DNA of 64,000 nt from a virus. The stretch lies in the IMG/VR virus record IMGVR_UViG_3300027674_000001, positions 1-64,000 of that record; one strand, given 5' to 3'. Below the pieces are notes generated by a model. It had not been told where the DNA came from and did not search any database. It saw only the letters and a list, made by a program, of their open reading frames with translations. Numbering within the stretch: position 1 is the stretch's first letter; each line of letters starts with the position of its first letter. Of the stretch, positions 1 through 57,377 are shown in pieces. Made by a program: the position numbers and the translations under genes.

Positions 1-1
1 C

Positions 2-529
2 AACCTTCAAATACGCAAACGAGCCACCGGCACAGGTAAGGCACAGTGGATCGATTACATGTTAGGTAAGCGAGCCGTCCCGTACGGATTCCCGGAAGCG
101 TTCCTATGCTCGCCGTCGTTTACCTCTCTCGGGTTCCAATCACACCGGGTAATTGATATCGATGAGGCTGTGGCGTGGATCATGGTATTGTACCGGACGT
201 GGAGTAAACCGTGGAAAGATCACAAGAGCATGCGAGTCCTGTACGATAACACAGGAGATGGGAAGAAGGACAAGGACGACTCGGCGCACGGGCCACCTAA
301 GCCACCCGGTACCCTACTCCCGACTGATCGCAATAGTAAACTCATGTACCGAGCTGGGGTCGCGAGTAAGTTGGCTCGCGGTATCGGGTACGAGAAGGCG
401 GTAGCCGCCGCGGGACATTTCCCTAGTGTTAAATCAATGGTCAACGCGAGCGCGGAAGAATGGGCGCTCGTATCTGGGTTTGGACGTGTCATGGCAACCG
501 CGGTGTATGATAAGGTGAGAGAGGAGTAA
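2..529 (+). CDS. Partial CDS with its 5' end outside the window. Function unknown, with a helix-hairpin-helix-like C-terminus (possible nuclease or DNA-binding protein)
   Basis: The frame is open from base 2 to the stop at 527-529, so the listed 59..529 ORF probably starts upstream of the window. The C-terminal GIGYEKAVAAAGHFPSV...GFGRVMA resembles tandem HhH motifs. The function is a guess. Confidence 0.45.
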   Translation, partial: NLQIRKRATGTGKAQWIDYMLGKRAVPYGFPEAFLCSPSFTSLGFQSHRVIDIDEAVAWIMVLYRTWSKPWKDHKSMRVLYDNTGDGKKDKDDSAHGPPKPPGTLLPTDRNSKLMYRAGVASKLARGIGYEKAVAAAGHFPSVKSMVNASAEEWALVSGFGRVMATAVYDKVREE

Positions 530-530
530 C

Positions 531-1178
531 GTGGGCGGCTGCAATAGCTGGCATGGTGGACATCGATGCTCTAACCCTGCCGAGTATAGACTACTGCACC
601 CAGATGGATCATTTAATCCTGGCGGGTGGATCTGTGGCAAGTGTGCCGCCGAGGTAATTGAGGAGTATGCGGAGAAACTAGGAGAGACGTGGGATATCGC
701 ACCACTAGAGGAGTCAACCGGAATACCCGCGCCCGAGACAACGAAAGAGAGGACGTTTACCATGCCATTACAGTGTGATCGTTGGCCCCCGCCCTATACT
801 GCTCGTTGCCCTAATCCCGCGCTCTATCGCCTCACTCGCACCCATCCCATCGAAGGAGTCCAGTACCTTGGCGGGCCGGTATGCGCGGAGTGTGCCGGGG
901 TCATCCTGTCCGAGGAAGAGAACGAGAGAGTAGCGGCGGGCGGCCCGTGGGACGTAGAGGAGATTGACCCGGAAACCCTTGCCGCTGCCCACCTTGACCC
1001 CTTGCCTGAGAACGTACCTACCCCTCAGGGCGCTCCCCGATTCCTGTACACCATCCCTCCGATTCCCTCGAAGGTTGAACGGGTGACTAAGTACCAGAGA
1101 GCTACCGCGCCCGCCACTCCGCGCCGACGTAGTACCCACAGTACCATTGACGTTGCTGGACTTAATGAGGACATGTAA
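531..1178 (+). CDS. Hypothetical protein with two tandem Cys-rich (zinc-ribbon-like) modules
   Basis: GTG start one base after the upstream stop. Two similar modules (C..NPAEYRLL...GKCAAEV and C.NPALYRLT...CAECAGV). Ends in TIDVAGLNEDM. Confidence 0.55.
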   Translation: MGGCNSWHGGHRCSNPAEYRLLHPDGSFNPGGWICGKCAAEVIEEYAEKLGETWDIAPLEESTGIPAPETTKERTFTMPLQCDRWPPPYTARCPNPALYRLTRTHPIEGVQYLGGPVCAECAGVILSEEENERVAAGGPWDVEEIDPETLAAAHLDPLPENVPTPQGAPRFLYTIPPIPSKVERVTKYQRATAPATPRRRSTHSTIDVAGLNEDM

Positions 1179-1184
1179 ACCGCT

Positions 1185-2627
1185 ATGACTTATCACTTCA
1201 TCGAAGGCGATATATTCGACATACTCCCGGGGTTTGAAGATGCCTCGTTCGATGCTTGCTTTTGTGACCCTCCATACCACATTTCGTTTATGTCGCGTAC
1301 TTGGGATAAAGGGGATGTTGCATTCCGTCCTGAGACTTGGGCAGAAGTATTCAGGGTACTTAAACCGGGCGCGCCATTGCTGGCATTCGGTGGCACTCGC
1401 ACCGTCCACAGGTTGACGTGTGCGATTGAGGATGCAGGGTTTGAGATCCGGGATACGTTGATGTGGCTTTACGGTTCTGGGTTTCCAAAAAGTCACGATA
1501 TAAGTAAAGGGATAGACAAGGCGCTTGGGCTAGAGCGAGAAGTGATCGGGCAGAAGATGCGCCCAGATGGTAAAGCAATGATTGACGCACGGCCCAATAA
1601 CTTCGATGGATCATTAGAAGGTTGGGATAGGCCGTGGAAGAAAGATCGCGCAAAGGTTGAGTTACAAGCATCAATCACCGCCCCCGCCTCTCCCGAATCC
1701 GCGCTATGGTCTGGCTATGGTACCGCGTTAAAACCAGCATGGGAGAGTATTATACTCGCGATGAAGCCATTAGATAGCGGGCTCACGTACGCTGAGAATG
1801 CGATGAAGCATGGGGTAGCGGGGTTGAATGTAGATGGTGCTAGGGTTAATGTTGATGGTGAGCGTCCACACATACAGCGCACTAATGACAAGTCTCTAGA
1901 TGGCGACGTATACGGTAGCGGTATAAATGGATCGAGAAGTTTAGGCACATTCAGTACCGGCCGCTGGCCCGCGAACCTTCTCCTATCCCACAGCGAGCAA
2001 TGCGTTGAAGGCACAGATGAAATATATGTATGCGCGGACGATTGCCCTGTTAGGCTGCTGGATAAGCAGAGTGGACAGACACGCTCACCAGATAAACCAG
2101 TAACCCAAGGTGTCAACTCTCGCGGCAGCGGATATAAAGTCGCCAAGGAACGCATAGATGCTGGTGGTGTAGGCTACGGTGACCGTGGTGGTGCCTCTCG
2201 ATTTTTTTACCAAGCCAAGGTTTCAACTCGCGAAAGAAACATGGGGGGAATCAATTGCTCCCATCCAACTCTCAAGCCTATTTCGTTATGTAAATACCTC
2301 GCAACTCTCATCCTTCCACCAGCCCACACCGATGGCTCCCCCCGCTCTCTACTCACTCCGTTCTCCGGCGCGGGCTCCGAAGTCTTGGGCTCCCTCCGCG
2401 CGGGCTGGGAGTATGTGATAGGGGTTGAGAGTGACCCGGAATCCGTGGCGTGGGCTGAGTGTAGGGTAGCGGCTGGATTGGGTGAGACGGTTCCCCCAAT
2501 GCCGTCTGCTTTCGCCAAGGCGCCCAGATCAGGACAAGACACCAGCCTCAATCCCTCACCTAGAACGGCTAGACAGGGCAAGGGGACGAGAATTGACGCG
2601 GACGCCTTGAATGAGGGAATCGACTAA
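1185..2627 (+). CDS. DNA N6-adenine/N4-cytosine methyltransferase (beta-class, DPPY type)
   Basis: Motif IV DPPY (FCDPPYH) lies near the N-terminus and AdoMet motif I (PFSGAGSE) near the C-terminus, which is the beta-class order. 480-aa ORF. The C-terminal tail is RIDADALNEGID. Confidence 0.85.
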   Translation: MTYHFIEGDIFDILPGFEDASFDACFCDPPYHISFMSRTWDKGDVAFRPETWAEVFRVLKPGAPLLAFGGTRTVHRLTCAIEDAGFEIRDTLMWLYGSGFPKSHDISKGIDKALGLEREVIGQKMRPDGKAMIDARPNNFDGSLEGWDRPWKKDRAKVELQASITAPASPESALWSGYGTALKPAWESIILAMKPLDSGLTYAENAMKHGVAGLNVDGARVNVDGERPHIQRTNDKSLDGDVYGSGINGSRSLGTFSTGRWPANLLLSHSEQCVEGTDEIYVCADDCPVRLLDKQSGQTRSPDKPVTQGVNSRGSGYKVAKERIDAGGVGYGDRGGASRFFYQAKVSTRERNMGGINCSHPTLKPISLCKYLATLILPPAHTDGSPRSLLTPFSGAGSEVLGSLRAGWEYVIGVESDPESVAWAECRVAAGLGETVPPMPSAFAKAPRSGQDTSLNPSPRTARQGKGTRIDADALNEGID

Positions 2628-2633
2628 GGGTAC

Positions 2634-2662
2634 TTGACAGGGTACCCTATCCATGGTAGCGT
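2634..2662 (+). promoter_or_regulatory. Sigma70-type promoter P1 (member of the conserved family)
   Basis: TTGACA 2634-2639, 17-nt spacer, TGG-TAGCGT with the -10 at 2657-2662. The -35 lies between complementary arms GGGTAC 2628-2633 and GTACCC 2642-2647. Confidence 0.6.
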
Positions 2663-2829
2663 CCTCCTTAGAGGACTAAAGACTAGCGGGGGTCGCGAGA
2701 CAAAAGGCCCGCCACATCTAAGCTGAGTCCGCCCCGTTTAGTCCTCTCTTGTGATCCCCTGCCGCTCTCCCGGATTCGCCGGAACGGGTGGCCGCCGTCA
2801 TCTACTCTCGGAAGGAAGGTACTCACCCT

Positions 2830-3246
2830 ATGCCCATCGCGAACACCGCCACACACGCCGCCAAGACTCCCGCCGCTCCCAAGCCCCCCAAGGCCGCTGG
2901 CACCAGCGTCAACAAGTCCGGTGCTCCCCGCGCCCCCAAGGGTCCCTCTCTCGTCTGGACCTCTGGCAAGGGGTCCATGGATGCCGTCCTCGTCAACGCC
3001 GCTCGCACTCAGGCCGCCGAGGGCAACGGGCTCGTGTACATTGGCCCGCTCGTGGACTCCCTCAAGTCCAGCCCGCTGTTCGCCGATGCCGTGGCCGCTG
3101 GCACCCTCACCCAGGCCAAGGTGAGTAGCCGTATCGCCAAGCTGCGGGCCTTCGGAGTCATCCTGCCCAAGAGCGGGCGCAACCGCTCCCAGGTGGACGT
3201 TGCGGGGCTCAACGAGGGAGTGGAGGCCGAGCTGGCCGCCGAGTAG
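2830..3246 (+). CDS. Lys/Ala/Pro-rich basic protein (histone-like/DNA-binding candidate), apparently monocistronic
   Basis: ATG 2830 follows GGAAGGAAGG. The N-terminus is AKTPAAPKPPKAAGTSVNKSGAPRAPKGP. The gene is visibly GC-richer than its neighbours. It has its own promoter upstream and terminator downstream. The C-terminus carries VDVAGLNEG. Confidence 0.65.
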   Translation: MPIANTATHAAKTPAAPKPPKAAGTSVNKSGAPRAPKGPSLVWTSGKGSMDAVLVNAARTQAAEGNGLVYIGPLVDSLKSSPLFADAVAAGTLTQAKVSSRIAKLRAFGVILPKSGRNRSQVDVAGLNEGVEAELAAE

Positions 3247-3277
3247 GTCAAAGACCGAGACAGACCATCTCCTCGCA

Positions 3278-3317
3278 AGCCACGGGGTTGTGTACCGCCC
3301 GCCCCGTGGCTCTTTTT
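3278..3317 (+). terminator. Rho-independent terminator
   Basis: 10-bp stem AGCCACGGGG 3278-3287 / CCCCGTGGCT 3302-3311, followed by TCTTTTTC. Confidence 0.7.
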
Positions 3318-3374
3318 CGTCCAGCCAGCGCGTGGGTTCCGGGACGCGGTTCCGGGCCTAGGGCCTTGGGGTCC

Positions 3375-3403
3375 TTGACAGGGACCCCGGCCTGTGGTAA
3401 GGT
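3375..3403 (+). promoter_or_regulatory. Sigma70-type promoter P2 (conserved family)
   Basis: TTGACA 3375-3380, 17 nt, TGG-TAAGGT with the -10 at 3398-3403. 7-bp arms GGGGTCC 3368-3374 / GGACCCC 3382-3388 flank the -35. Confidence 0.65.
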
Positions 3404-3495
3404 GGAACCCGTGCTCAGTTGCTTGATAACGCGGTAGCGATGGGCCGAGGACGACTCGGTGGCATCTGAGCACAATTAAAAACGAGGTGACCCCC

Positions 3496-3786
3496 ATGTT
3501 GCGATTCGTTGACGTGCGAGGGTACGGTACTGATGGCAGGTTCTCTTACTACAACACGGTCACAGGCAAGTATCTAGAACTAGACGGCGATCAGATATGG
3601 GATTCGATGCAAGAGGTAGAAGAGAGTCACACGAGCGACAGATCGGGGGCAGGGCTAGAATACCCGCTTGATCGACTTCAAACGATTACACCCCAATGGG
3701 CATTTATTCAGTCCACAGAAGAGGAGATGCAAGAAGCCATCTATAGATTCTACGGCGTGGGTGCTGTGGTAGGGCAGAGGCCATGA
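3496..3786 (+). CDS. Hypothetical protein
   Basis: ORF with ATG 3496 about 9 nt after ACGAGG. GTG 3487 is an alternative start. It is the first gene after P2. Confidence 0.55.
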   Translation: MLRFVDVRGYGTDGRFSYYNTVTGKYLELDGDQIWDSMQEVEESHTSDRSGAGLEYPLDRLQTITPQWAFIQSTEEEMQEAIYRFYGVGAVVGQRP

Positions 3787-3989
3787 AAATTATAATCGGT
3801 GGAGTAAATCTCACCATCCCACTCGATCAGCGTATCGACGTAGCGCGGCAAGTGGTGGGCCAGCTAGAGCAGTGCGAAATACTCCCCGTGTTTGAGGGGA
3901 TACCCGATCACGTCAAAGTGTGGATAGCCGATTGGGATGCAGGCGTGAAGAAGAGAGCACTTCGCCAGATGCTGAAGGGGGGACGTTGA
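3783..3989 (+). CDS. Hypothetical protein
   Basis: 68-aa ORF. Its start overlaps the upstream stop (ATGA), suggesting translational coupling. Confidence 0.5.
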   Translation: MKIIIGGVNLTIPLDQRIDVARQVVGQLEQCEILPVFEGIPDHVKVWIADWDAGVKKRALRQMLKGGR

Positions 3990-4405
3990 TGTCAATTTCT
4001 GTCAACCGCACCGGGTACCTAGTCACGTACTCTATCCCAGTCCGCGAGCTTGGTAAGGGTCCAGCCCCGCACGATGGCGGATACCGTACCTACGCCTGCG
4101 CCGACGAAGCCGCACTGGCCGCGCTTATCCTCCGGTTAACTGGACGTGAACTGAGTACGTATCCGAGACGGTCCACACACCCACAGTGGAAAGAAAAGAG
4201 CGAGAGCATCATGTGGACTATCCCCGGAGTCCAAATCGCGCACCCGCTCCATATCTACTCGACGAGTACAGGATGCGAAACGGAGATAGCGACAGTGTGC
4301 GGTCATGTGAGATTCGGGACGACACTCTCATGTGTCAAGGATTACGGGCACAAGGGCCAACACAACTACGGTAGAACCAAAAGGCACACGGCCCCGTGTT
4401 CGTAG
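3989..4405 (+). CDS. Hypothetical protein
   Basis: In-frame ATG 3989 overlaps the upstream TGA. The listed 3920 start would overlap the previous gene by 70 nt. Confidence 0.5.
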   Translation: MSISVNRTGYLVTYSIPVRELGKGPAPHDGGYRTYACADEAALAALILRLTGRELSTYPRRSTHPQWKEKSESIMWTIPGVQIAHPLHIYSTSTGCETEIATVCGHVRFGTTLSCVKDYGHKGQHNYGRTKRHTAPCS

Positions 4406-4680
4406 CCACCGCAGCTAAGATCCACTCGGCTCGTTGTGGGGGATTCGCTACCGCTCCCATCGATGATCTCATCTTCGCCGCGAGCCATGACGGTTGGTGT
4501 CCATCATTCATCCACTGGCTGAGAGAGAATCGATATCTCCGGTGGCCCAACACCCCGGACGTACTCCGATACTACGGATGGGTGGCGAATGAAGATCTCA
4601 CCATGGCGCGATTCGACACGGTACCCGGGTGGAAGTTTGCGGCGGCGTTGGATGAGATGGAACCAAGGAGTAACTGTTGA
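4396..4680 (+). CDS. Hypothetical protein
   Basis: 94-aa ORF in a tightly packed co-directional array. Confidence 0.5.
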   Translation: MFVATAAKIHSARCGGFATAPIDDLIFAASHDGWCPSFIHWLRENRYLRWPNTPDVLRYYGWVANEDLTMARFDTVPGWKFAAALDEMEPRSNC

Positions 4681-5207
4681 CCGCGCGAGGTGACACCGTG
4701 ACCCGCTTAATTACTCTTTCGATATCCACCTATATAGGTACATCGTTTCTCGCCACCCATTACTATGGACGCCTATACAATACCGCCGATGACGAATATT
4801 CCTCCATAGACGTAGAGCGTCCGATGACCCACCGAGAGATTGTCGCCGCGAACAAGGAAGCGGGGCACTCTGTATGCGAGCGCGGGGACATGACTAGTCG
4901 CCTTCTTAGTGAGGATGAGGTACATAAGGTGGCTATCAAGTGGTACAAGGCCCACTCCGATGCCTTCGATGATGCGGTACTCCTAGAGGGCCATTTCGCG
5001 TCGTGTGATCCCAAGAAGGCTATCGCCGGTCCACCGGATATCGTAGCGCGGATTAACTCCTTGTGGGAAGCATGGGAGACAATGAACGGATGGGACGGTG
5101 GTAATAGAATAGGTGCGCGAGCCGTGGCAAAGGTATGGGATGAGTTGATGAAGGAAATTAGGCAAGGAGGGATAACCCCGTGGACTCCGATCAATCCGCT
5201 ATCCTAA
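4677..5207 (+). CDS. Hypothetical protein
   Basis: 176-aa ORF with a TTG start overlapping the upstream stop. GTG 4698 is an alternative start. Confidence 0.55.
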   Translation: MTARGDTVTRLITLSISTYIGTSFLATHYYGRLYNTADDEYSSIDVERPMTHREIVAANKEAGHSVCERGDMTSRLLSEDEVHKVAIKWYKAHSDAFDDAVLLEGHFASCDPKKAIAGPPDIVARINSLWEAWETMNGWDGGNRIGARAVAKVWDELMKEIRQGGITPWTPINPLS

Positions 5208-5671
5208 CTCTCCTCCGCGCCCGTGGCCCTCTAACAGTCTCCCAAATCGCGGATGCCATCTATCCCAATGGTACTGGGTTCATGGAAGATTGTGGCCTAA
5301 GCGCGGGAGACAAGATAGACCTAGAACTGTCTCGCCTACAATACTCGGTAGAAGAGATAGGAAGAGATGACGAGGGCGAAGGCATCTACTCCGCTACCAC
5401 TCCCGAACGGTACGCGGAACTACGCAAGATTGCCCGCTGCGACATGGCACAGTGGCTTAGGGATGTTCGCTCTAAGATGCGGCGGAAGGCTAGGGACACA
5501 GACCAGGACCTATATAACGAGATTGATTACCACCTGTACCGAGCCACCCTTAGCGAGCGCCGCCATATCATGCGAGCGAGTAAGCGGCCAGTGGGGGAGA
5601 TGGTAGCCGAGTTTAACGCGAAGGGTTTAAGGTGTATTAATGACATAGAGAGGGAGAAAGGTACGCTATGA
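5180..5671 (+). CDS. Hypothetical protein with an N-terminal winged-helix-like segment
   Basis: 163-aa ORF. ILTLLRARGPLTVSQIADAIY resembles a MarR/wHTH recognition region. Weak call. Confidence 0.5.
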   Translation: MDSDQSAILTLLRARGPLTVSQIADAIYPNGTGFMEDCGLSAGDKIDLELSRLQYSVEEIGRDDEGEGIYSATTPERYAELRKIARCDMAQWLRDVRSKMRRKARDTDQDLYNEIDYHLYRATLSERRHIMRASKRPVGEMVAEFNAKGLRCINDIEREKGTL

Positions 5672-5997
5672 CAATCGACGAAGCCATCGCCCAGTGCGAT
5701 ATCCGCAATTACCGGAAAGATGTCAGATGGGTACCCAACCCCAATGAACCAGTCGAGTTTATCCCTGTGTACAGTGTAGATAGCGGCCAAGCAGATATCA
5801 GCGGGCCAACCGATGCACTATTAATGTTATTTATGTGCGGTGTAAGTAGTGTGGACGGTAATGATGTGATCCGCACTATCCGTACTCGTGACTATATATG
5901 TAATCCTGTAGATATCATGGTGATTAAGGTTGAGAGTACAACTGACAAAGAGTCAAGCCAAGGTAACATCATCTGGCGTCGGCCTACATCAGTATGA
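5668..5997 (+). CDS. Hypothetical protein
   Basis: 109-aa ORF with ATGA overlaps at both ends. Confidence 0.5.
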   Translation: MTIDEAIAQCDIRNYRKDVRWVPNPNEPVEFIPVYSVDSGQADISGPTDALLMLFMCGVSSVDGNDVIRTIRTRDYICNPVDIMVIKVESTTDKESSQGNIIWRRPTSV

Positions 5998-7418
5998 TAG
6001 TAGTCCCTGGTGCTGGCCGCCTACCTAACCTCGTGCTGCTTTGTGGGGAAGCTCCCGGCGCACAGGAAGCCGAGAAGGGAGAGCCATTTATAGGACGTAG
6101 CGGGCAAGAACAAAGCTGGTATTTATCCCGCCACAACCTTAACGTCCGCAACTGGTATCGTACCAACGTCTCGAAATGCTGGCATGGTGATAATCGCGAC
6201 CCCTCCCGCGAAGATATCGAGGAGTGGACTCCTGTACTCCTCTCCGAAATAGAACAATGCTCCCCCTCGCTCGTGATAGCAGTCGGGAGGTTCGCCGCTC
6301 GATTCTTCCTCGGGGAATCGGTAGAGATGGATATGGTTCACGGGCTACCCCATCGCCCCGGTGCCTTCGATCCCTCGCGTATATCCCGCGCGCCCAAGGG
6401 GTGTGTTATCCTGCCCGTGACGCACCCAGCTAGTGTCTTCCACGGCTCCGATGACAAGAAGAATGATATCCGGGCGCTGGTAGACTGGGATTACTCTCAG
6501 GCCGCGCAAGTGTTAGCTTTGATTAAATCCGGCCGCGCCCACGAGATAGACTACCGTGGTGACGAATATCCCAATCCGCACTATGAAGACGTATCGGGTC
6601 AATTCATCTCTGATTACATCGCCGCTAAAGTCACTCTCGGCGGGGTGCAATCCATGGCGCTTGACACCGAGGGAGTACCGGGCGCCGAGTGGTCTATACA
6701 GGTGAGCTTAGACCCAGGTGAGGGATTCTTACTCAGGTGCGCTCGCGATGACTTCCAGGTGGGGATAGCGGCATTACAGGAGGCGGTAGATAAAGGTATC
6801 TTGGTTATAACCCATGACGCCTCCACCCCTGCCGGCTGCTGCTACGATACCATCATGGCGCGCGGTATGGGGCTCGATTTATCCCGAGCATCCAACATCT
6901 TCAACACGATGACAGCGCTGTACCTATTACGTTTCGAGCCCCAAGGACTCAAGCCCGCAGCTTGGCGCTGGTGTGGCATGCGCATGACAGACTATGAGAG
7001 CCTAATCGGCGACATCGGCTACCGGAAGCAATTCGAGTACCTATGTAGGGTACTGGATTACCGAGATTCCCCTTGGCCTACAATTGAACCTCGAATGGTG
7101 CACGAACACGATGGCACCTCGCGCGTATATTCGCCCCATGGCATAGAGCAATCGGCCCGGAGTATCGTTCTCGATATCGCCAACGGTAAGCTAGACAAGG
7201 ACGGGAATCCGCCCGATCCGTGGAAGCGATGGAAGCAAGTCCTACCGGAGATTAGAGAGATTACCTCGCGGGTGCTAGGCCCCATGCCTACAGGTAATCT
7301 AGGGGATATACCTCTAGAGGACGCCACTATCTACGCAGCTAAAGATGCCGACGCTTCCTTACGACTGTATTACGCGCTGTCGGATGAATTGCGGCGACGG
7401 GATCTAACACAGGCATAA
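5994..7418 (+). CDS. Family-4 uracil-DNA-glycosylase-like domain fused to a PolA-type 3'-5' exonuclease domain (N-terminal part of a split DNA polymerase)
   Basis: UDG4-type motifs GEAPG..E...G.PF.GRSG and THPAS. Exonuclease motifs MALDTEG (ExoI) and YAAKDADAS (ExoIII). The ORF ends at the usual exo/pol domain boundary. Confidence 0.85.
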   Translation: MIVVPGAGRLPNLVLLCGEAPGAQEAEKGEPFIGRSGQEQSWYLSRHNLNVRNWYRTNVSKCWHGDNRDPSREDIEEWTPVLLSEIEQCSPSLVIAVGRFAARFFLGESVEMDMVHGLPHRPGAFDPSRISRAPKGCVILPVTHPASVFHGSDDKKNDIRALVDWDYSQAAQVLALIKSGRAHEIDYRGDEYPNPHYEDVSGQFISDYIAAKVTLGGVQSMALDTEGVPGAEWSIQVSLDPGEGFLLRCARDDFQVGIAALQEAVDKGILVITHDASTPAGCCYDTIMARGMGLDLSRASNIFNTMTALYLLRFEPQGLKPAAWRWCGMRMTDYESLIGDIGYRKQFEYLCRVLDYRDSPWPTIEPRMVHEHDGTSRVYSPHGIEQSARSIVLDIANGKLDKDGNPPDPWKRWKQVLPEIREITSRVLGPMPTGNLGDIPLEDATIYAAKDADASLRLYYALSDELRRRDLTQA

Positions 7419-7424
7419 ACAGAC

Positions 7425-8525
7425 ATGCCAGCTTACTACAACGAGATAGACCCATTCGTGGCCAATTGGCTAGAGTGGCTAGTTAAAGTTGAGATGATCG
7501 CGGATGGCGTGGTAGATAGGCGCTCTATCAAGGACGTTATGCCAAGTGACTTGAACGGGTTTACTCAGTGTCATTTCTTCGCGGGTATAGGCGGCTGGTC
7601 GTATGCGTTACGGTTGACTGGATGGCCCGATAATAGACCCGTGTGGACAGGCTCATGCCCATGTCAACCGTTCTCAGGTGCAGGGCTAATGCTGGGAGAG
7701 AATGATGATAGGCACCTCTGGCCAAGTTGGTTTGATCTCATTGCGCAGTGCCAACCTCCAATCATCTTTGGAGAACAAGTTGCAAGCCCGCCTGGACGTG
7801 AATGGCTCGATACTGTATCAGCTAATTTGGAAGCATTGGACTATGCCATCGGGGCGGCGGATCTGTGCGCTGCGGGCATCGGTGCCCCGCACATCAGGCA
7901 ACGGCTGTGGTTCGTGGCCGAGTCCACGAGCGACCGATACGGGGAGACGCGGATGGAAGCCGAGTCCCGGAGAGGGCAATGTACAACTCGACAGGATGGC
8001 AGCGATGTGGCTAGCGGGGTATCCAACACCAAACACCCGCGATCACCATGCACAGGGGGCAACCCACAACACGAAAGCTCAATCGTCGTCACTGGCAACA
8101 AAGTTAGAGAAGAAAGCGCGGCCTATGGGCTGGCCAACCCCGATGGCAGGAACACCGAAACAGAAGGGTTACAACGAAGCCGGCAACACGGACAGCAGCC
8201 GAAAGACGGTCGCACTATTATCAGGTTGGCCCACGACTCGTTCCAGCGATGCAGAGAAGAACGTGCGAACGATAGAAGGGAGCGCCCGCGAGATGGCAAG
8301 GAAGGGCACAGCGCAGGACTTGAACCAAGCGGCGACACTAACCTATGGGCCTTGTGCGAATGGCTCCCATACTCAGATGGTAGATCGCGGCCAGTTGAAC
8401 CCGGCACATTCCCGTTGGCTCATGGGATTCCCCGACGTGTGGGACGATTGCGCGGATATGGTAACGCGATAGTACCTCAAGTCGCCGCTGAGTTTATAGG
8501 TGCATATCTGGATACAGAACAATGA
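7425..8525 (+). CDS. DNA (cytosine-5)-methyltransferase with an anomalous reading-frame structure
   Basis: This frame carries motifs I FFAGIGG, IV PCQPFS, VI FGEQV, VIII QRLWF and X GNAIVPQV. The central third is Arg-rich and low-complexity, while the overlapping ORF 7702..8472 carries family-typical target-recognition motifs. See the finding on this gene. Confidence 0.7.
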   Translation: MPAYYNEIDPFVANWLEWLVKVEMIADGVVDRRSIKDVMPSDLNGFTQCHFFAGIGGWSYALRLTGWPDNRPVWTGSCPCQPFSGAGLMLGENDDRHLWPSWFDLIAQCQPPIIFGEQVASPPGREWLDTVSANLEALDYAIGAADLCAAGIGAPHIRQRLWFVAESTSDRYGETRMEAESRRGQCTTRQDGSDVASGVSNTKHPRSPCTGGNPQHESSIVVTGNKVREESAAYGLANPDGRNTETEGLQRSRQHGQQPKDGRTIIRLAHDSFQRCREERANDRRERPRDGKEGHSAGLEPSGDTNLWALCEWLPYSDGRSRPVEPGTFPLAHGIPRRVGRLRGYGNAIVPQVAAEFIGAYLDTEQ

Positions 8526-9802
8526 CTGGCCGCCACACCACCATGGAAGAGTGTATGGCGGTACTCCCGATATTCGAGGAGATGCAGCGGAATGGTATGC
8601 CCGCATCCCGATCATACTTCGAGGCCCTATCCGCCGAGATGTGGCAGCGTATGTCCACGGTTCAACGACGTATATCCACGGAATACTTCGATGGCCGCCC
8701 GTTCAATCCCAATTCCACCAAGCAAGTGGCAACCCTTCTCCGTCGTCGCGGACTCGTGGGGCATAAGCGGACCCAAGCGGGCGCTGTATCTACCTCCGAG
8801 AAGTCCATAGGGCACTTGCAATTCACGGACCCCGCGATTCATGACGTATTCGAGTGGCGGGAGTACGAGCATATCAAAGACGCATTCTGTCAACCCATCT
8901 TAGGTAAATTCGACCCCGCTAACCCGGACGATATCCAACCCATCCGGTGTGTTATCCGTACTACTCGCATCCCTACGCGGCGGATAGCTGCTAGTGACCC
9001 TAATCTACTCGCTATGCCGGTGCGCACCGAGGAAGGACGTAAAGTGCGAACCGGGTTCATATGCCCCGAGGGTGAGGTATTCGGAGCTTGGGACTACTCG
9101 CAATTAGAAATGCGCTGCATGGCGCACGAATCGCGCGACCCCCTCATGTGTCAACTGTTTTACGAGAATCGAGATATCCACACCGAGACAGCGGCTCGAA
9201 TATTCAAGATACCGCTAGATCAGGTAGATAAGTTCAAGCATCGTATCCCGGCGAAAAATTCGGGATTTGGAATTCTATATGGGATACAAGGCGAAGGACT
9301 GTTAACCCAACTCCGGATGCTCGGCATCGAGGGATGGACTAAAGAGTCTTGCCAAAAACTAATCGGTGACTGGTTGGACGTGTTCCAAGGAGTAAAAGAG
9401 TACATCGCGCGGACAGCGGTAGAGGTGGCGAAAGTCGGCTATGTGCGGGACTACTCAGGAGCCTATCGCTACATCCCTGGAATCCGCCACTACGACCGCA
9501 AGATAGCCGCAGAGGCCGCACGGTTAGCAGTGAGTCAACGTATCCAGGGCTTGGCGCAAACCATGATACAGCGAGCGATGATTTATCTCCGGCCCCAGAT
9601 ACGCTCTATGCAGGATAGTGGGCTTAACGTTAAGTGGCGCCTTCAAGTGCATGACGAATTACTTAAGTCGTTCACCCCGGACTTGTGGGAGCCATTAGAT
9701 TACATCGTCCGGGATGCGTTAGTTAACCACAGCGGGATAGAGTTAAGAGTGCCGATAGAGTGTGAAGGTAAGTACGCCTCTAGGTGGTCTGATCTTAAGT
9801 GA
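8522..9802 (+). CDS. Family-A DNA polymerase, polymerase domain only (C-terminal part of the split polymerase)
   Basis: Motif A DYSQLEMR, motif B RIPAKNSGFGILYG, motif C QVHDEL. The ATG overlaps the methyltransferase stop (ATGA). Confidence 0.9.
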   Translation: MTGRHTTMEECMAVLPIFEEMQRNGMPASRSYFEALSAEMWQRMSTVQRRISTEYFDGRPFNPNSTKQVATLLRRRGLVGHKRTQAGAVSTSEKSIGHLQFTDPAIHDVFEWREYEHIKDAFCQPILGKFDPANPDDIQPIRCVIRTTRIPTRRIAASDPNLLAMPVRTEEGRKVRTGFICPEGEVFGAWDYSQLEMRCMAHESRDPLMCQLFYENRDIHTETAARIFKIPLDQVDKFKHRIPAKNSGFGILYGIQGEGLLTQLRMLGIEGWTKESCQKLIGDWLDVFQGVKEYIARTAVEVAKVGYVRDYSGAYRYIPGIRHYDRKIAAEAARLAVSQRIQGLAQTMIQRAMIYLRPQIRSMQDSGLNVKWRLQVHDELLKSFTPDLWEPLDYIVRDALVNHSGIELRVPIECEGKYASRWSDLK

Positions 9803-9812
9803 GGTTAAGGCT

Positions 9813-10493
9813 ATGCCCTACGCTAATATAGAAGTTGGAAGAATGAAAGCCAGAGAGAGGTATCTCAGAAACAAGGAAGCTATTGACTCTGCATCAAGAG
9901 AATACTATTGGAAGAATAAAGAACGAATAAACTCCAAGAGGAGAAAACCAATCCAAAGTGCAAGCGAAAGAGCCGACCATTTAACTGCCAAACTAAGGGC
10001 TAGGTTCCAGAGTTACCTACGTCGTAATAAGGTAACTGGGTGCTTAGAGTGGATGGGCTATAAAGATGTTCACGGATATGGTAAACTGTGGATAGGTAGC
10101 CAGAAAGATGGCACCCTTAGAAAGGAAATGTCTCATCGCGTTGCGTGGATTCTAGCTGGTAAAGAGATTACACCAGAGAAACCATTTATCCTGCACAATT
10201 GCCCATGCGGCGACAATCCCTCGTGTTGCGAGATCGCGCATCTATGGGATGGCACAGCAGCAGACAATAATACCGATAGATCAAGAAAGGACAGAAGTAG
10301 ACGCAGTGAGCTAGGACTCCCTAGAGGTGTTCAACCAAATTACACTCAGAAGGAATCTTACCAAGCCCGTATTCAAGTGGGCAGTAAGCAAATCTACATC
10401 GGATCGTATAGCTCAATCGAAGAGGCTAGGCAAGCTGTAGAAGCTGCCGGCGGATGGAGACAAGAAGAGAGCGGCGGCGATGCCACCACGTAA
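9813..10493 (+). CDS. HNH homing endonuclease with a C-terminal AP2-like DNA-binding domain (free-standing mobile gene)
   Basis: GCLEWMGYKDVHGYG...SHRVAW...LHNCPCGDNPSCCEIAHLWDGTAADN is an HNH_3-type signature. YQARIQVGSKQIYIGSYSSIEEA is AP2-like. The gene is visibly AT-rich relative to its flanks. The start was moved to ATG 9813. Confidence 0.85.
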   Translation: MPYANIEVGRMKARERYLRNKEAIDSASREYYWKNKERINSKRRKPIQSASERADHLTAKLRARFQSYLRRNKVTGCLEWMGYKDVHGYGKLWIGSQKDGTLRKEMSHRVAWILAGKEITPEKPFILHNCPCGDNPSCCEIAHLWDGTAADNNTDRSRKDRSRRSELGLPRGVQPNYTQKESYQARIQVGSKQIYIGSYSSIEEARQAVEAAGGWRQEESGGDATT

Positions 10494-10635
10494 CCGTCAC
10501 CGCCACTCTATCCCCTCGCGCCGTCGTAATCGCGGGTACCGATTTCTCCCCCTCGTGGCGTCCGTGCTAAGTTGTCATCTTGTGATCTGGTCAACCCGTA
10601 GATCGGGGATTCTAGGCCCCCCAAGAAGACGGGCC

Positions 10636-10665
10636 TTGACAGGGACCCCCCGAGGATGGTAGTCT
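10636..10665 (+). promoter_or_regulatory. Sigma70-type promoter P3 (conserved family)
   Basis: TTGACA 10636-10641, 18 nt, TGG-TAGTCT with the -10 at 10660-10665. The flanking arms GGGCC/GGACC have one mismatch. Confidence 0.6.
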
Positions 10666-10674
10666 TTTGGGGCG

Positions 10675-10875
10675 ATGAGCGAGCGAGTAGAGGACCGACA
10701 AAACGGGGCAGGGTGCCACCTGTCACGGGCAGCGGCTCGGCAACTGGGCGATGACCCGGATACACGGGCGAACCCGGATACCGTGGCATGCGACAAATCG
10801 GTCGCCGTGGCACACGGACAGCGGGAGACGGTGGACGCATACTCTCGCCGCTTGCCCATCGCGTTGCACCTTTGA
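10675..10875 (+). CDS. Possible small protein (66 aa) on a very short leader
   Basis: The ATG lies 10 nt after the P3 -10 element. No Shine-Dalgarno sequence. Composition is not clearly coding. Alternatively this region is a 230-nt untranslated leader. Confidence 0.3.
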   Translation: MSERVEDRQNGAGCHLSRAAARQLGDDPDTRANPDTVACDKSVAVAHGQRETVDAYSRRLPIALHL

Positions 10876-10891
10876 TCTAATTCACTAGCCA

Positions 10892-11077
10892 ATGTACCAG
10901 CCAACCGCTATCGAGATCGCCCGTCACGGCTACACCGAATCGGACGACGCATTACGCCTATCATTCGGTGCGTACTTCCGCGAGTGTGAGAGGGTGTTTC
11001 TAGAGAGATTAGAGGAACTGGTGTCTCAAGAGATCGCTAAGCAAATCACCGCGGATGGGTACGGGATCAAGGTCTAA
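10892..11077 (+). CDS. Hypothetical protein
   Basis: 61-aa ORF with no obvious RBS. Confidence 0.4.
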   Translation: MYQPTAIEIARHGYTESDDALRLSFGAYFRECERVFLERLEELVSQEIAKQITADGYGIKV

Positions 11078-11084
11078 ACTCGCC

Positions 11085-11279
11085 ATGGACGCCGTTACTA
11101 GGCTATTGGACTTCCTCGATGCCATCTTTAATTCTAAGGATGAAGATCCGCACGTTATCCCATATGCGTCCAGTTGGGATATCGACGTATACGATAAGTC
11201 ACCTCTAGGCAACGGGTATACGATGTGGGAGACGGGTAAACGGTTGCTCGCGGACGCCAAGGCGGAACTCAACTCATGA
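11085..11279 (+). CDS. Hypothetical protein
   Basis: ATG 11085 is the first non-overlapping start within the listed ORF 11055..11279. Confidence 0.45.
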   Translation: MDAVTRLLDFLDAIFNSKDEDPHVIPYASSWDIDVYDKSPLGNGYTMWETGKRLLADAKAELNS

Positions 11280-11542
11280 AATGCCTATTAGGTACGGACG
11301 ATTGGGAGGTGATCTATCTCACTGTTTGCGTACCTCTCGTACACCTTAACATCGATGGACAGAGCATTCCAGAAGTCGTCCCAAGCGAGCGCTCGCTAAG
11401 CGCGTCGTTCGATACCGTTGAAGCAGATGTGCCCGATGAGTTAGTGGCCAGATACCTTGCCGCTAATAAGGAATTCGAGGAAGTGCAGCACGAGTTGTCT
11501 AATATCTTGGGCGACGATGCACGGGACGCGATATGTCGATAG
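11276..11542 (+). CDS. Hypothetical acidic protein
   Basis: 88-aa ORF with an ATGA overlap with the upstream gene. Confidence 0.5.
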   Translation: MKCLLGTDDWEVIYLTVCVPLVHLNIDGQSIPEVVPSERSLSASFDTVEADVPDELVARYLAANKEFEEVQHELSNILGDDARDAICR

Positions 11543-11552
11543 GGCTACTACC

Positions 11553-12284
11553 ATGTCGATAGACGTACAAGGGCTTAACCAACTCGAGAACCCCGCGCAT
11601 TATTCCACCGCGGAGGGCGACCCCACTTTACATAGTTTGCAACGCTCACGAACGAGACGGCAACCGGGCGAGTGGGAGGAGTTATACTTCCAATTTCTCT
11701 GCGAGGGTAAGACTCGCGAAGTGGCCGCCGCGCTCGCTGGGGTTACTCGCCAGGCTCCATTTCTCCGTCGTAAATCCGATGTGTACTTCGCCGAGATGGA
11801 GTATGCCAGCGTACAGATGGGTACGGCGGATTTATTGAATGATGCGCGGGATGTAATCAAAGAACGGGCGCGCGGGTATGAGAGAGTATTGATCCATCTA
11901 CTATCTCACCGAGGGGTTAACGCTAAGACTATCGTAGAGACGAGTGGACCAAATGGTGGGCCACAACAAGTCAACGTGACAGGTGGCGTGGGTGGCGTGG
12001 GCGCGTTTGACATTGACGCTATCCCAATGCCGATTGATGTTAAGCGAGCGGTGGTCGCGCGCATGGAAGAGATTGAGGCGATGATAGCACCGTACCGGGG
12101 GAACATGAATGGACCAAAGCCAAATGTGGGGCAGCTTGCTACTGGAGATCGCGGTAATGGGGTTAGCATTCTTGGTGGGGTACGTGGGGATGCGATGGAT
12201 AGACAGGAGAAGGTAATCAACGTAGCACAGGCACAGGTTACCGCACAGTCCCGCCCGCGCCCGCTTGTGAGGTTACCGATATGA
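11553..12284 (+). CDS. Hypothetical protein with a helix-turn-helix-like segment
   Basis: ATG 11553 lies just after the upstream stop. GKTREVAAALAGVTRQAPFLR resembles an HTH. The N-terminus MSIDVQGLNQLE resembles the tail motif of the three left-end proteins. Confidence 0.55.
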   Translation: MSIDVQGLNQLENPAHYSTAEGDPTLHSLQRSRTRRQPGEWEELYFQFLCEGKTREVAAALAGVTRQAPFLRRKSDVYFAEMEYASVQMGTADLLNDARDVIKERARGYERVLIHLLSHRGVNAKTIVETSGPNGGPQQVNVTGGVGGVGAFDIDAIPMPIDVKRAVVARMEEIEAMIAPYRGNMNGPKPNVGQLATGDRGNGVSILGGVRGDAMDRQEKVINVAQAQVTAQSRPRPLVRLPI

Positions 12285-16676: not shown

Positions 16677-17057
16677 ATGAATACAAGAAACCCAACTCCG
16701 CTAAGCGCTCTCGCTCCTCCCGCTCCTCCCGCTCCTCCCGCTCCTCCCGTCTCTCGTTCTGCTGTATTCATCTCGCCCACATCTCGCCACACCGTTACCC
16801 CGTTCGACTCTACACCCGACACGTATACGTTAGATGGGGTGGTGTATCAATACGTTGGGACTTCGGATGGGGCGGCGTTCTACATGACGGATGAGCAGAT
16901 AGATAAAGCTGGGTATGCTCTTGCATCTCCTCGATACCTTGATTCGTTTGTCACATGTAACGGGTTGGGGCCTTGGTGTGAGCAATGCGGCGATTGTCTC
17001 GTGTGTTACGGTGAGGACGTATGTACGGTTACCGGAGAGCCGCACTCGTGCCCATAA
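16677..17057 (+). CDS. Hypothetical protein with a (PAP)n tract and a Cys-rich C-terminus
   Basis: 126-aa ORF. A 9-bp repeat GCTCCTCCC x4 at 16713-16748 encodes PAPPAPPAPPAP. The C-terminus has CEQCGDCLVC. Confidence 0.5.
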   Translation: MNTRNPTPLSALAPPAPPAPPAPPVSRSAVFISPTSRHTVTPFDSTPDTYTLDGVVYQYVGTSDGAAFYMTDEQIDKAGYALASPRYLDSFVTCNGLGPWCEQCGDCLVCYGEDVCTVTGEPHSCP

Positions 17058-17785
17058 AGCAACCCGAGACACCTGTGCCACCGAAGCCCGCACCACCCCG
17101 CAGTAATCTAATCCATCTCCCTGTTGGGGATCACGGATATACGCGAGGTAAGAAGGAACGCAAGCAGCATGAGCACTCGGTGGGGTACGGTACTGAGGAC
17201 TTCGATATTATCGATGAGTTAACCGTTAACCGAGATCAGTACTCAGTGGGGCCAGAGGACAAGTGCTTTAATCTATCTATGCTCGACTTCCCGTCCTTAT
17301 GCTCTATCGCGGTTAACGGTATCAAGGCTCGAATGGGGTTAAACAGTATTCGTATTGGGGTTCACACGATCATATCATGTTGCATAGCTAACGCCATTAC
17401 CATCATAGATAAACGAGATCATACACGGCAAACCCTAGAATCACGGGAGAGATTCGATCTCAGTAATCCCGACGCCGATGGTTATATAATCACTCAACTT
17501 AATAAGTGGTTCGATCAGTTTGCGGGGGAGATCGTGTTCAGCGGAGAACGGCAGAATATTAAATTGCCGCTTGGAGTGGGGTCTAGCTTGAGCGAGCTGT
17601 CAAAGGGGTTGGGGTTGGGCAATCCCACCATGGCAGTCATATGCTCTATGCTTACACTAAGTACTCAGTCGTCCGTTAATCGCCACCATAGGGCTGCCAT
17701 GAGCCGACACGTAGAGGACTTCTACCAGTTGATAAGAGTGAGGATAGATGGGATTGATGCGCTGATGGAGAGGTTTAACCTGTGA
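17021..17785 (+). CDS. Hypothetical protein (254 aa)
   Basis: Long ORF, somewhat AT-richer than its surroundings. It overlaps the upstream gene by 37 nt. No family recognised. Confidence 0.5.
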   Translation: MYGYRRAALVPIKQPETPVPPKPAPPRSNLIHLPVGDHGYTRGKKERKQHEHSVGYGTEDFDIIDELTVNRDQYSVGPEDKCFNLSMLDFPSLCSIAVNGIKARMGLNSIRIGVHTIISCCIANAITIIDKRDHTRQTLESRERFDLSNPDADGYIITQLNKWFDQFAGEIVFSGERQNIKLPLGVGSSLSELSKGLGLGNPTMAVICSMLTLSTQSSVNRHHRAAMSRHVEDFYQLIRVRIDGIDALMERFNL

Positions 17786-18771: not shown

Positions 18772-19143
18772 ATGAGCGACGATTTAACCTGCAACCCGAT
18801 ACCGATACATGACACACCTATAACCCCCACGCCAATCTACCGTGGAGAGTTATCCGAGGTACGCTCCCAACTCTCCGAGGTGCTAGCCAAGTTACAGATA
18901 GCCCCAGCTGGTGCCAGTGCCACACCTGCGCCGGTATTCTCCGTACTAGACTTCATCACGCTAATGTCCACCATCGAACGTACCGCGTTGGACGTGGCAT
19001 GGCAGAGTGTACCCAAGAACGCACCCACCGCGCAATTGACGGATTGGTTGACGCGGGCGGAGGTGGTAGCCAAGTACATGCGGCGGCGATTGGGGTTACC
19101 GGAGAGTGTGGTGCAAGCGCCGGTGCCGCCCATTACTACGTAA
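18772..19143 (+). CDS. Hypothetical protein (small terminase candidate by position only)
   Basis: 123-aa ORF immediately upstream of the large terminase gene. No motif support. Confidence 0.45.
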   Translation: MSDDLTCNPIPIHDTPITPTPIYRGELSEVRSQLSEVLAKLQIAPAGASATPAPVFSVLDFITLMSTIERTALDVAWQSVPKNAPTAQLTDWLTRAEVVAKYMRRRLGLPESVVQAPVPPITT

Positions 19144-19153
19144 CATTTGCCCT

Positions 19154-25332: not shown

Positions 25333-25468
25333 CCTCCACCCCTACATCTTGCGAGGGGTAGAATCCTACCCACTCCGTGGTACAACTTGCCCCCGAGGAC
25401 CTATCTCCTTGGGAGCCCGCACCTACTCACCGTCTCGCCTCTCCGGGTCCACCCGGGGTACCCGAGCC

Positions 25469-50663: not shown

Positions 50664-51080
50664 ATGTGCTATGGTCCTGCTGTGATAGACGCTGAATATC
50701 TTAATGGAGGCGAACCTGGTTTATCCCAGACTCTGGCCCCTTTGCGCCAATCTACCACTTACACGTATGGAAGAGATCTGCGATTAATGGCGTGTCATGT
50801 GATTGATTTGCTAGATAAATCTGGTAAAGCTAATTACTGCTCTAGAAAGTGTTTTGGCGAGAGTAAACGTGCCGGTATGCCTGGTCGTATTTATTGGAAG
50901 ACCGCTATGGACAATTATTTTGTCAAATATGCTCGCAGGGGAATGGTGTTATCTGATATGGTTCCTGTGTTGTCATCGTTGACGGAGTTTGCAGGTATGC
51001 GTGTTACCGTCCCGGCTTTGAGACGAAGATACAATAAACTGAAAGATGCCGGCGTACTGTTACCTCAACTAGGAGAGTAA
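50664..51080 (+). CDS. Hypothetical protein in an AT-rich island
   Basis: 138-aa ORF, visibly AT-richer than the flanking tail genes. Confidence 0.45.
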   Translation: MCYGPAVIDAEYLNGGEPGLSQTLAPLRQSTTYTYGRDLRLMACHVIDLLDKSGKANYCSRKCFGESKRAGMPGRIYWKTAMDNYFVKYARRGMVLSDMVPVLSSLTEFAGMRVTVPALRRRYNKLKDAGVLLPQLGE

Positions 51081-57182: not shown

Positions 57183-57377
57183 ATGCAAGACTATACGATT
57201 TACATCATCCCGGTAAAGACAGGTGTTCGTGCGCGCTGTGGTGGCCCCTACAAGGCAGAGACAGCGGAGGGCGCGCTAGATGCGTACTTCGCTGATTTCC
57301 CCGATGAGGCCCCATCCGCGGAGGGGAACGAGTATGACGAGAACGAGTACGATGCTGCGCCCGAGGTGCACTCATGA
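57183..57377 (+). CDS. Hypothetical acidic protein
   Basis: 64-aa ORF with RBS AAGGAGAG. Confidence 0.5.
   Translation: MQDYTIYIIPVKTGVRARCGGPYKAETAEGALDAYFADFPDEAPSAEGNEYDENEYDAAPEVHS

Follow-up and report, generated by a model that had tools for sequence, protein, structure and literature searches.

In an uncultured soil phage, the same short peptide ends or begins a set of proteins that are otherwise unrelated to one another; its core is hydrophobic-Asp-hydrophobic-x-x-Leu-Asn. The phage is represented here by positions 1 to 64,000 of IMG/VR record IMGVR_UViG_3300027674_000001, a stretch of 64,000 nucleotides that we refer to as the window. The peptide is found at the C-terminal ends of three consecutively encoded proteins, a zinc-ribbon protein, a DNA methyltransferase and a basic winged-helix-like protein, which the first-pass annotation of the window had already described as otherwise unrelated, and at the N terminus of a protein resembling small terminase subunits; a fifth carrier is probable. 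We propose, with a probability of about 0.62, that it is a portable docking peptide through which the carriers bind one common, co-evolving partner, both the binding and the partner being what we infer from comparison of the sequences.

The motif and its copies

The three C-terminal copies and the N-terminal one reported in the first-pass annotation all lie where it had placed them (Table 1). The pattern [IV]D[VA].[GA]LN[EQ] has exactly four matches in the six-frame translation of the window, all of them in real open reading frames (ORFs), against a chance expectation from residue composition of 0.0011 in the proteome of ~20,400 residues and of 0.0011 in the six frames. The pattern was composed after the fact, and the margin over chance is still huge, with four exact copies where 0.001 would be expected. 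All four are terminal, three of them lying 2–9 residues before the stop codon and one at residue 3. A looser pattern has a single further match in the six frames, candidate copy 5, and by our estimate about 0.1 matches to that pattern would be expected by chance in terminal zones. No copy was found in the 5.6 kb of the genome that lie outside the window. The tail peptides of the window phage are GRNRSQVDVAGLNEGVEAE, KGTRIDADALNEGID, STHSTIDVAGLNEDM and MSIDVQGLNQLENPA, and the predicted ancestral peptide, SRYTVDTAGLNALLGA, has the form R-x-R-Y-x-V-D-V-x-G-L-N-x-L-L-G.

The copies differ from one another at synonymous positions, as had been noticed earlier: Ile is encoded by ATT, ATA or ATC, Leu by CTT, TTG or CTC, Asn by AAT or AAC, and Gly by GGA or GGG. 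Because the codons differ in this way, conservation is at the level of the peptide, and an element that acts as DNA, for example a promoter or an operator, is ruled out. The basic linker described ahead of the motif is also present, each C-terminal copy being preceded by a stretch rich in Arg, Pro and Gly. In AlphaFold models of two of the carriers the tails have predicted local distance difference test (pLDDT) scores of ~40–60 and are thus disordered, with the adjacent domains predicted confidently.

A DNA-pattern scan of IMG/VR for VDVxGLNxLLG returned four matches, all in non-coding frames. Within the window, residues 20–31 of ORF 59449–59868 (...LAIGLNELLYLE, positions 59506–59541) resemble the GLNxLL half of the motif, without the hydrophobic-D-hydrophobic half, and this resemblance is probably due to chance.

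Table 1. Positions in the window of the motif copies, their carriers and other features
Feature	Position	Strand	Remarks
Carrier 1, Cys-rich protein, 215 aa	531..1178	+	Two tandem C-x8-10-C...C-x2-C zinc-ribbon-like repeats
Pro/Arg-rich linker of carrier 1, ...FLYTIPPIPSKVERV...ATPRRRSTHST	990..1145	+	By composition only
Motif copy 1, IDVAGLNEDM (stop)	1146-1175	+	C terminus of ORF 531-1178
Carrier 2, N6/N4 DNA methyltransferase, DPPY type, 480 aa	1185..2627	+	PF01555 E=2e-7; phrog_67 E=1e-33
Disordered Pro/Ser/Arg-rich linker of carrier 2, residues 441-469	2505..2591	+	pLDDT ~40
Motif copy 2, IDADALNEGID (stop)	2592-2624	+	C terminus of ORF 1185-2627
Sigma-70-like promoter element ahead of the basic-protein gene	2634..2665	+	TTGACA inside palindrome, then TGGTAGCGT
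Carrier 3, basic protein, 138 aa	2830..3246	+	Start taken as ATG 2830, per the gene call in L004
Winged-helix-like domain of carrier 3, residues ~38-116	2941-3177	+
Motif copy 3, VDVAGLNEG, then VEAELAAE (stop)	3193-3219	+	Near C terminus of ORF 2830-3246
PolA part with UDG/exonuclease	5994-7418	+
C5 DNA methyltransferase (PF00145)	7425-8525	+	Between the two PolA parts
PolA polymerase part	8522-9802	+
Carrier 4, protein resembling small terminase subunit, helix-turn-helix, 243 aa	11553..12284	+
Motif copy 4, MSIDVQGLNQLE, (MS)IDVQGLNQLE, then ~30-residue linker	11559-11588	+	N terminus of ORF 11553-12284
Large terminase subunit	19106-20641	+	PHROG/Pfam scan
Portal	25349-27274	+	PHROG/Pfam scan
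Possible protease/minor head protein	27274-29091		Weak protease-family match, phrog_530 E=2e-6
Candidate carrier 5, 138 aa	50664..51080	+	Loose pattern and domain homology
Candidate motif copy 5, IDAEYLNG (MCYGPAVIDAEYLNGGE)	50685-50708	+	Residues 8-15 (N-terminal) of ORF 50664-51080
UvrD-like helicase	57374-58924	+	Family scan
TTGACAGGGWMCC copies	2634, 3375, 10636, 16375, 56061, 56617	+
TTGACAGGGWMCC copies	22822, 55963	-

The basic winged-helix-like protein and its paralogue

In the basic protein (carrier 3) a Lys/Pro/Ala-rich N terminus precedes a four-helix winged-helix-like domain, from which a short linker rich in Arg leads to the motif; the end of the protein is acidic. Residues 41–115 of its AlphaFold model have pLDDT values of ~90, and the C-terminal tail is flexible (~55–60). 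A Foldseek search with the model gave weak matches that were all winged-helix proteins and all at E>1 (the globular domain of histone H1x, Lrp and KAT6A), and sequence searches of the PDB with this protein found nothing significant, so that we describe the domain only tentatively as winged-helix-like.

The motif is a constant feature of this family. A search of related phages found it in all of the basic-protein homologues (12/12), following an Arg-rich stretch, at 25–46% identity to the window protein. The tails of these homologues include GRGYQVDVTGLNGLFG, SRYTVDTAGLNALLG, GGYTVDVNALNGLLG, TVKPDVAHLNSLLG, RYELDVDGLNAIP and ATIDVVAINKLLG; the Leu and Asn of the motif (L127 and N128) are nearly invariant, and the surrounding linkers vary. 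The winged-helix domain recurs in the candidate fifth carrier, residues 74–137 of which (nucleotides 50883–51074) are homologous to that of carrier 3 (hhalign probability 94%, E=8e-8; hmmsearch E=4e-6), and this ORF is probably a genuine carrier.

The basic protein is also one of only three genes found in common between the window and L017, an otherwise unrelated phage of 71 kb, within the 20 kb of the latter that were fetched (common genes at 10001–11661 and 18846–20402). The other two are a homologue of ORF 17021–17785, which in L017 directly adjoins the basic-protein gene on the opposite strand, and the UvrD-like helicase; the three may form a functional trio.

The methyltransferase and its C terminus

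Carrier 2 scores 31.6 bits against PF01555, the cutoff of which is 26.7, has DPPY at residues 28–31, and has 8000 homologues at E<=1e-10. As modelled by AlphaFold, it has a catalytic core with pLDDT >90 and a last helix at residues 418–431, and the linker and motif together (residues 441–480) are at ~40. The linker varies in both length and sequence among homologues. Those of the same lineage end in IDVATLNE..., VDVDGLNSLL..., PDPDYLNSL (stop) or LDTEALDVLGDILS (stop). In L003 the homologue (10001–12046) has 681 residues and a LAGLIDADG homing-endonuclease domain (PF00961), with the lineage tail kept at its end; the domain probably stems from an intein or from insertion of an endonuclease.

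The statement that methyltransferases of this class normally carry no such tail was half right. Among the 120 closest homologues 8 end in the window motif, and others end in short motifs of their own: 18 in Qxx[LM][FLW], where 0.3 would be expected, and 16 in DAPL[LFW]. Interior control windows predict fewer than one occurrence each of Qxx[LM][FLW] and of GDAPL[LFW]N, as the second type can be written. The frequency of these two endings argues that the C terminus of this methyltransferase family is a general site for docking peptides. Two unrelated phages have methyltransferases ending in QPGLFG or GDAPLLNEVSA, and in neither was the tail found on a second protein in the 10 kb to each side.

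The Qxx[LM][FLW] endings raise the question of whether the window motif is itself a non-canonical beta-clamp-binding motif, tethering the carriers to the host sliding clamp, DnaN, on phage DNA that is being replicated. This would be a specific version of the docking proposal, and we consider it unlikely. The bacterial motif is QL[SD]LF or, more generally, Q-aliphatic-x-[LM]-(x)-[FL], and brings many DNA enzymes to one pocket, from the C terminus in Pol II and Pol IV and from the N terminus in Hda (PMC11139829). Like the motif described here, it is short and linear, lies in disordered termini (tail pLDDT ~40–60 here) and occurs at either end of a protein; the Qxx[LM][FLW] endings, which have its shape, occupy the same C-terminal position in homologous methyltransferases; and N-x-L-L-G-hydrophobic, in the ancestral form, is similar to the QLVLGL hexamer of Pol IV, the effect of replacing Gln by Asn being modest (PMC11139829). 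Phages Mu and T4 moreover couple transcription or packaging factors to clamps (PMC12867686, PMC9026906). However, the copies in the window (NEDM at the stop, NEGID at the stop, NEGVEA and NQLENP) have neither the Gln, nor an aliphatic residue at position 2, nor the terminal Phe or Leu. The most conserved residues, hydrophobic-D-hydrophobic, belong to no known clamp-binding motif. In addition, the clamp pocket is highly conserved and its motif nearly universal, which leaves unexplained that the motif described here changes rapidly and in concert from one related phage to another (see below). The canonical motif is ruled out, since no copy in the window follows its sequence rule; a scan for the canonical pattern near C termini gave no case in a real ORF.

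The methyltransferase endings may be of wider interest than the window motif itself. The many phage and prophage members of the family that have a clamp-binding-like Qxx[LM]F ending suggest that a tether to the replication clamp is common for DNA methylation in bacteria. A parallel exists in eukaryotes, where DNMT1 is tethered to PCNA.

The Cys-rich and terminase-like carriers

The Cys-rich protein (carrier 1, ORF 531–1178) matches no Pfam or PHROG family and has homologues in two of the related phages, L007, where the tail is PDIDVDSLNEG (stop), and L016. Carrier 4 is probably, if tentatively, related to small terminase subunits: its homologue in L016 matches phrog_4044, annotated 'terminase small subunit', at E=3.9e-5, although the window protein itself has no match, and two small-terminase structures, 3zqp (E=0.35) and 4zc3 (E=1), were among the weak matches of a PDB profile search. 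Its gene lies ~7 kb upstream of that for the large terminase subunit. The protein begins M-x-IDV-x-x-LN in 3/3 homologues, with I3, D4, V5, L8 and N9 invariant (MAIDVRALNH in L016, MPIDVRSLNQ in L007).

Two further observations concern this gene. A 10-nucleotide direct repeat, ATGTCGATAG, occurs at 11532–11541, in the end of the preceding gene, and at 11553–11562, across the carrier 4 start codon, in different frames. There is also a second short terminal motif, hydrophobic-hydrophobic-x-L-P-hydrophobic, at 12264–12281, 17108–17125 and 57383–57400. It forms the carrier 4 C terminus, PLVRLPI (stop), also in L016; lies near the N terminus of ORF 17021–17785 as SNLIHLPVG (SNVVPLPVG in the L017 homologue); and forms the N terminus of the UvrD-like helicase as VIGLPLPP. 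It is loosely like the Hda-type clamp motif QLSLPL, and we estimate that ~1.4 matches would occur in the proteome by chance.

The identity of the carriers bears on the suggestion in the first-pass annotation that the peptide targets co-injected proteins to the capsid, by docking them to the procapsid interior, the scaffold or the portal for packaging and injection together with the DNA. DarB of phage P1 is a precedent for injected anti-restriction cargo, and an injected methyltransferase and basic DNA-binding protein would be plausible as such; a portal and a possible protease or minor head protein are encoded in the window. A terminal peptide behind a flexible linker, portable between unrelated proteins that are sent to one assembly, also fits encapsulin cargo-loading peptides and the capsid-targeting sequences of T4 (PMC9026906). 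The latter are, however, N-terminal propeptides that are removed by the prohead protease (PMC9026906), whereas three of the five copies here are C-terminal and have no conserved cleavage residue. Furthermore, the terminase-like carrier resembles a protein that is not part of the virion, the genes of the three neighbouring carriers are part of the early/replication module and are flanked by those for an XPF-like nuclease and PolA, with a separate sigma-70-like promoter for the basic protein. The suggestion thus fits poorly, and we regard targeting to the virion as improbable.

Co-occurrence and concerted change in related phages

Contigs of relatives were reached through methyltransferase homologues, basic-protein homologues (by an exhaustive HMMER search) and a PolA alignment, and were viewed as ~10 kb on either side of these anchor genes. 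Searches of INPHARED and IMG/VR found no close relative among cultured phages or IMG/VR contigs. A megablast search of INPHARED phages with positions 1–12000 of the window gave only an 80-bp match in the C5-methyltransferase, a tblastn search of INPHARED with the basic protein and the N-terminal part of PolA gave no relative, and scans of IMG/VR with alignments of the methyltransferase, the small-terminase-like protein and the basic protein gave no match. A word-indexed protein search with the basic and small-terminase-like proteins returned only self matches, and a profile search of genome contigs with the PolA alignment returned none.

In five genomes, that of the window phage included, the tail of the adjacent methyltransferase resembles that of the basic protein from the same genome. 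The respective tails are IDADALNEG and VDVAGLNEG in the window, IDVATLNE and VVGALNEG in L007, VDVDGLNSLL and IDVVAINKLL in L008, PDPDYLNSL and PDPDYLNSL in L001, and LDTEALDVLG and LDLDTLAGIL in L003. Of the 120 permutations of methyltransferase and basic-protein tails among these genomes, the true pairing has the highest similarity. The motif therefore varies between phages and co-varies within them.

Its occurrence follows that of the basic protein. All six genomes with a motif-bearing client, counting that of the window phage, also encode the basic protein, and three more (L015, L017 and L018) have the motif on the basic protein and no other carrier, there being no methyltransferase in the fetched flanks of L015 and L017. 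The motif is absent from four relatives (L011–L014) that have neither methyltransferase nor basic protein, and that share with the window phage the helicase and mostly also the nuclease and PolA. This distribution, together with retention of the motif throughout the basic-protein homologues, indicates that the motif is native to the winged-helix family, with carrier 3 as its putative ancestral home, and was copied onto other proteins of the same genome. The arrangement in L016 argues that the linker and motif form a modular unit: this phage lacks the methyltransferase, and after its Cys-rich gene comes a 44-codon ORF (9589–9723; MAKPFQIPPIPPKPKVGRARATRTAAPRRSKAGIDVASLNEGID, then stop) that consists of linker and motif alone (...SKAGIDVASLNEGID, then stop), is homologous to the linker of carrier 1, and overlaps the stop codon of the Cys-rich gene (ATGGCTAA). 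This ORF could encode a free tail peptide or reflect a frameshift site or an assembly indel.

The same comparison bears on whether the peptide might be a processing site or degron, recognized by a phage prohead protease or a host AAA+ protease that trims early proteins or sets their timing. Terminal degrons are common, and the L-N-E of the three C-terminal window copies (L-N-Q in the N-terminal one) fits the L/I-x-E rule of T4 gp21, the analogy drawn in the first-pass annotation; a weak match to a protease family (phrog_530) was obtained for ORF 27274–29091. The Glu, however, is not conserved, relatives having LNS, LNG, LNA, LNK, INK, LDV and LAG in its place, and the positions that are conserved lie upstream of it (hydrophobic-D-hydrophobic-x-x-L-N). 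Cleavage would remove only 2–9 residues, and host protease degrons are broadly conserved, with no need to change in concert among close phages. The analogy is thus not supported, and a processing role is in our view very unlikely.

A proposed common partner for the carriers

The terminal position of the peptide, the disordered and variable linker, the few invariant residues, portability between N and C termini and concerted change together argue that the carriers share one partner. In the mechanism that we envisage, each carrier would bind the same site on this partner through the peptide, with the result that DNA methylation, DNA coating and initiation of packaging would take place at the same location on the phage DNA; the motif would have been copied from the winged-helix family to neighbouring genes, and the copies within a genome would drift together. 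Between the roles first put forward for the peptide, recruitment to a common partner is accordingly the one favoured by its disordered terminal position, its conservation as a peptide, its presence in all basic-protein homologues, its copying and its concerted change. Rapid concerted change within genomes points to a fast-evolving and hence probably phage-encoded partner, which may be the winged-helix protein itself; the alternative is a specific host hub that is bound to DNA.

The winged-helix domain is a candidate receptor because the basic protein is consistently present and both winged-helix paralogues carry the motif. Taken further, the basic protein could be a phage 'linker histone' that coats or marks the phage DNA, and its winged-helix domain could be what the peptide binds. 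The tail of the basic protein itself would then join neighbouring molecules head to tail, and the same handle would bring the methyltransferase, the zinc-ribbon protein and the small-terminase-like protein to phage chromatin for methylation and initiation of packaging. The presence of the motif in cis on both paralogues, the occurrence of the basic protein in every genome that encodes a client, the lack of the motif in relatives without it and the rapid concerted change all fit. As a complete scheme this is doubtful, but, if true, it would amount to a peptide-based means of discriminating phage DNA from host DNA.

Several points weigh against a common docking partner. AlphaFold docked neither of the modelled tails, those of the methyltransferase and the basic protein, onto its own protein, leaving self-binding without direct support. 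Pfam and PHROG scans of the replication-module and neighbouring ORFs and of the 5.6 kb outside the window, a scope that leaves out some small and structural-module ORFs and in which a very divergent clamp could escape, detected no sliding clamp, clamp loader or ParA-type ATPase. The methyltransferase of L018 is tailless, and the motif of its basic protein is degenerate and internal, which suggests that the motif is dispensable in some lineages. The test of co-variation comprises only five genomes and is driven in part by L001, the tail-coding DNAs of which are identical at 25 of 27 positions, so that gene conversion is part of the concerted change. A 383-residue protein of the replication module, protein X, was considered as a hidden clamp and rejected; alignment by eye suggests an N-terminal domain of possible OB-fold or single-stranded DNA-binding protein (SSB)-like type, a low-complexity linker and a small C-terminal domain.

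The identity of the L001 tails is also what would be expected if the peptide had no function and were a recombination scar, that is, a 3'-end duplicated when cassettes were inserted and then homogenized by gene conversion. The adjacency of three of the carriers is consistent with this, as is the position of the tail-coding ORF of L016, which ends in ...LNEGID (stop), like the window methyltransferase, and stands where the methyltransferase is missing. Set against this, the copies in the window differ at most synonymous sites with the peptide kept, two copies sit at N termini, at distances of 8 kb and 47 kb from the adjacent three, and the motif has been retained in all of the divergent basic-protein homologues when the adjoining linkers have not. 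We therefore regard a scar as highly improbable.

Comparison with known systems

Shared terminal peptides organize the enzymes of replisomes on one hub, as is the case for clamp-binding motifs and SSB tails, and to our knowledge the T4 clamp provides the only well-studied phage example of a shared terminal docking peptide. The polymerase gp43, the sigma factor gp55 and the co-activator gp33 of T4 have interchangeable hydrophobic-acidic C termini, joined to the body by divergent linkers, with which these DNA-acting proteins bind gp45, the clamp that serves as their common hub on DNA (PMC2988020, PMC7892883), and packaging in T4 is linked to gp55 and the clamp (PMC9026906). In the T4 record, gp43 ends ...ASLDFLFG (stop) and gp55 ends ...SLDFLYEAND (stop). 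Here, too, unrelated proteins of one phage share a near-identical terminal peptide on divergent linkers, and SLDFLFG and SLDFLYE resemble the GLNGLFG and GLNALLG forms that we take as ancestral in this family. Unlike in T4, the copies in the window do not follow S-L-D-F-L-[FY], GLNEDM, ALNEGID, GLNEGVE and GLNQLE being without the L-[FL]-G half; the hydrophobic-D-hydrophobic half has no T4 counterpart; the carriers differ and two copies are N-terminal; and no gp45-type clamp or loader was detected among the ORFs scanned. The T4 C termini are thus the closest analogue, in the sense that the window peptide may work like them, and not that it belongs to the same family.

The GLNALLG form of this family also looks like the GLDALLG of ParB. 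The peptide of ParB is likewise terminal and precedes a disordered linker on a DNA-binding protein; it is the N-terminal ParA-binding sequence LG[RK]GLxALL, which is aliphatic with a central Arg or Lys as its only polar residue (PMC12462528). A peptide of this type is ruled out here, as there is no central basic residue, the Asp is conserved, and the ORFs scanned contain no match to the ParA/MinD family.

The window phage, from soil, belongs to a lineage of uncultured phages with genomes of ~60–70 kb that have no recognizable clamp and a different linking peptide, one that would connect a DNA methyltransferase, a histone-like protein, a zinc-ribbon protein and a terminase-like protein. Knowing the partner would reveal how methylation is coupled to DNA coating and packaging in a phage of this kind, and the peptide could then serve there as a small recruitment tag, transferable between proteins.

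Genomic setting

The sequence of the window is also found in a soil-metagenome contig of 69,772 bp (ENA ERZ923212). The fetched upstream flank begins with sequence shared with the end of the window, which implies a circular or circularly permuted genome of ~69.6 kb; the window covers all but ~5.6 kb of it, the missing part belonging to the replication module. Every large ORF in the window is on the + strand, and the window contains no tRNA genes.

The promoter element ahead of the basic-protein gene belongs to a recurrent set. The sequence TTGACAGGGWMCC has 8 copies in the window against 0.27 expected, its TTGACA lying within a GGKWCC/GGGWMCC palindrome, and all but the site at 22822 (7/8) have a TGGTAnnnT-like extended -10 sequence 17–18 nucleotides downstream. 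These sites look like a family of phage promoters with a built-in operator, and the seven TTGACA-17/18-TGGTAnnnT sites point to a bacterial host.

PolA, divided in the window by the C5 DNA methyltransferase gene, is a single, unsplit gene in L001, L003, L016 and L018, and is split in L007 by two small ORFs. The ORF that follows PolA in the window (9762–10493) ends ...QIYIGSYSSIEEARQAVEAA and looks like the AP2-type DNA-binding domain of homing endonucleases; a homologue with 67% identity occupies the same place in L003, and it is absent from the other relatives.

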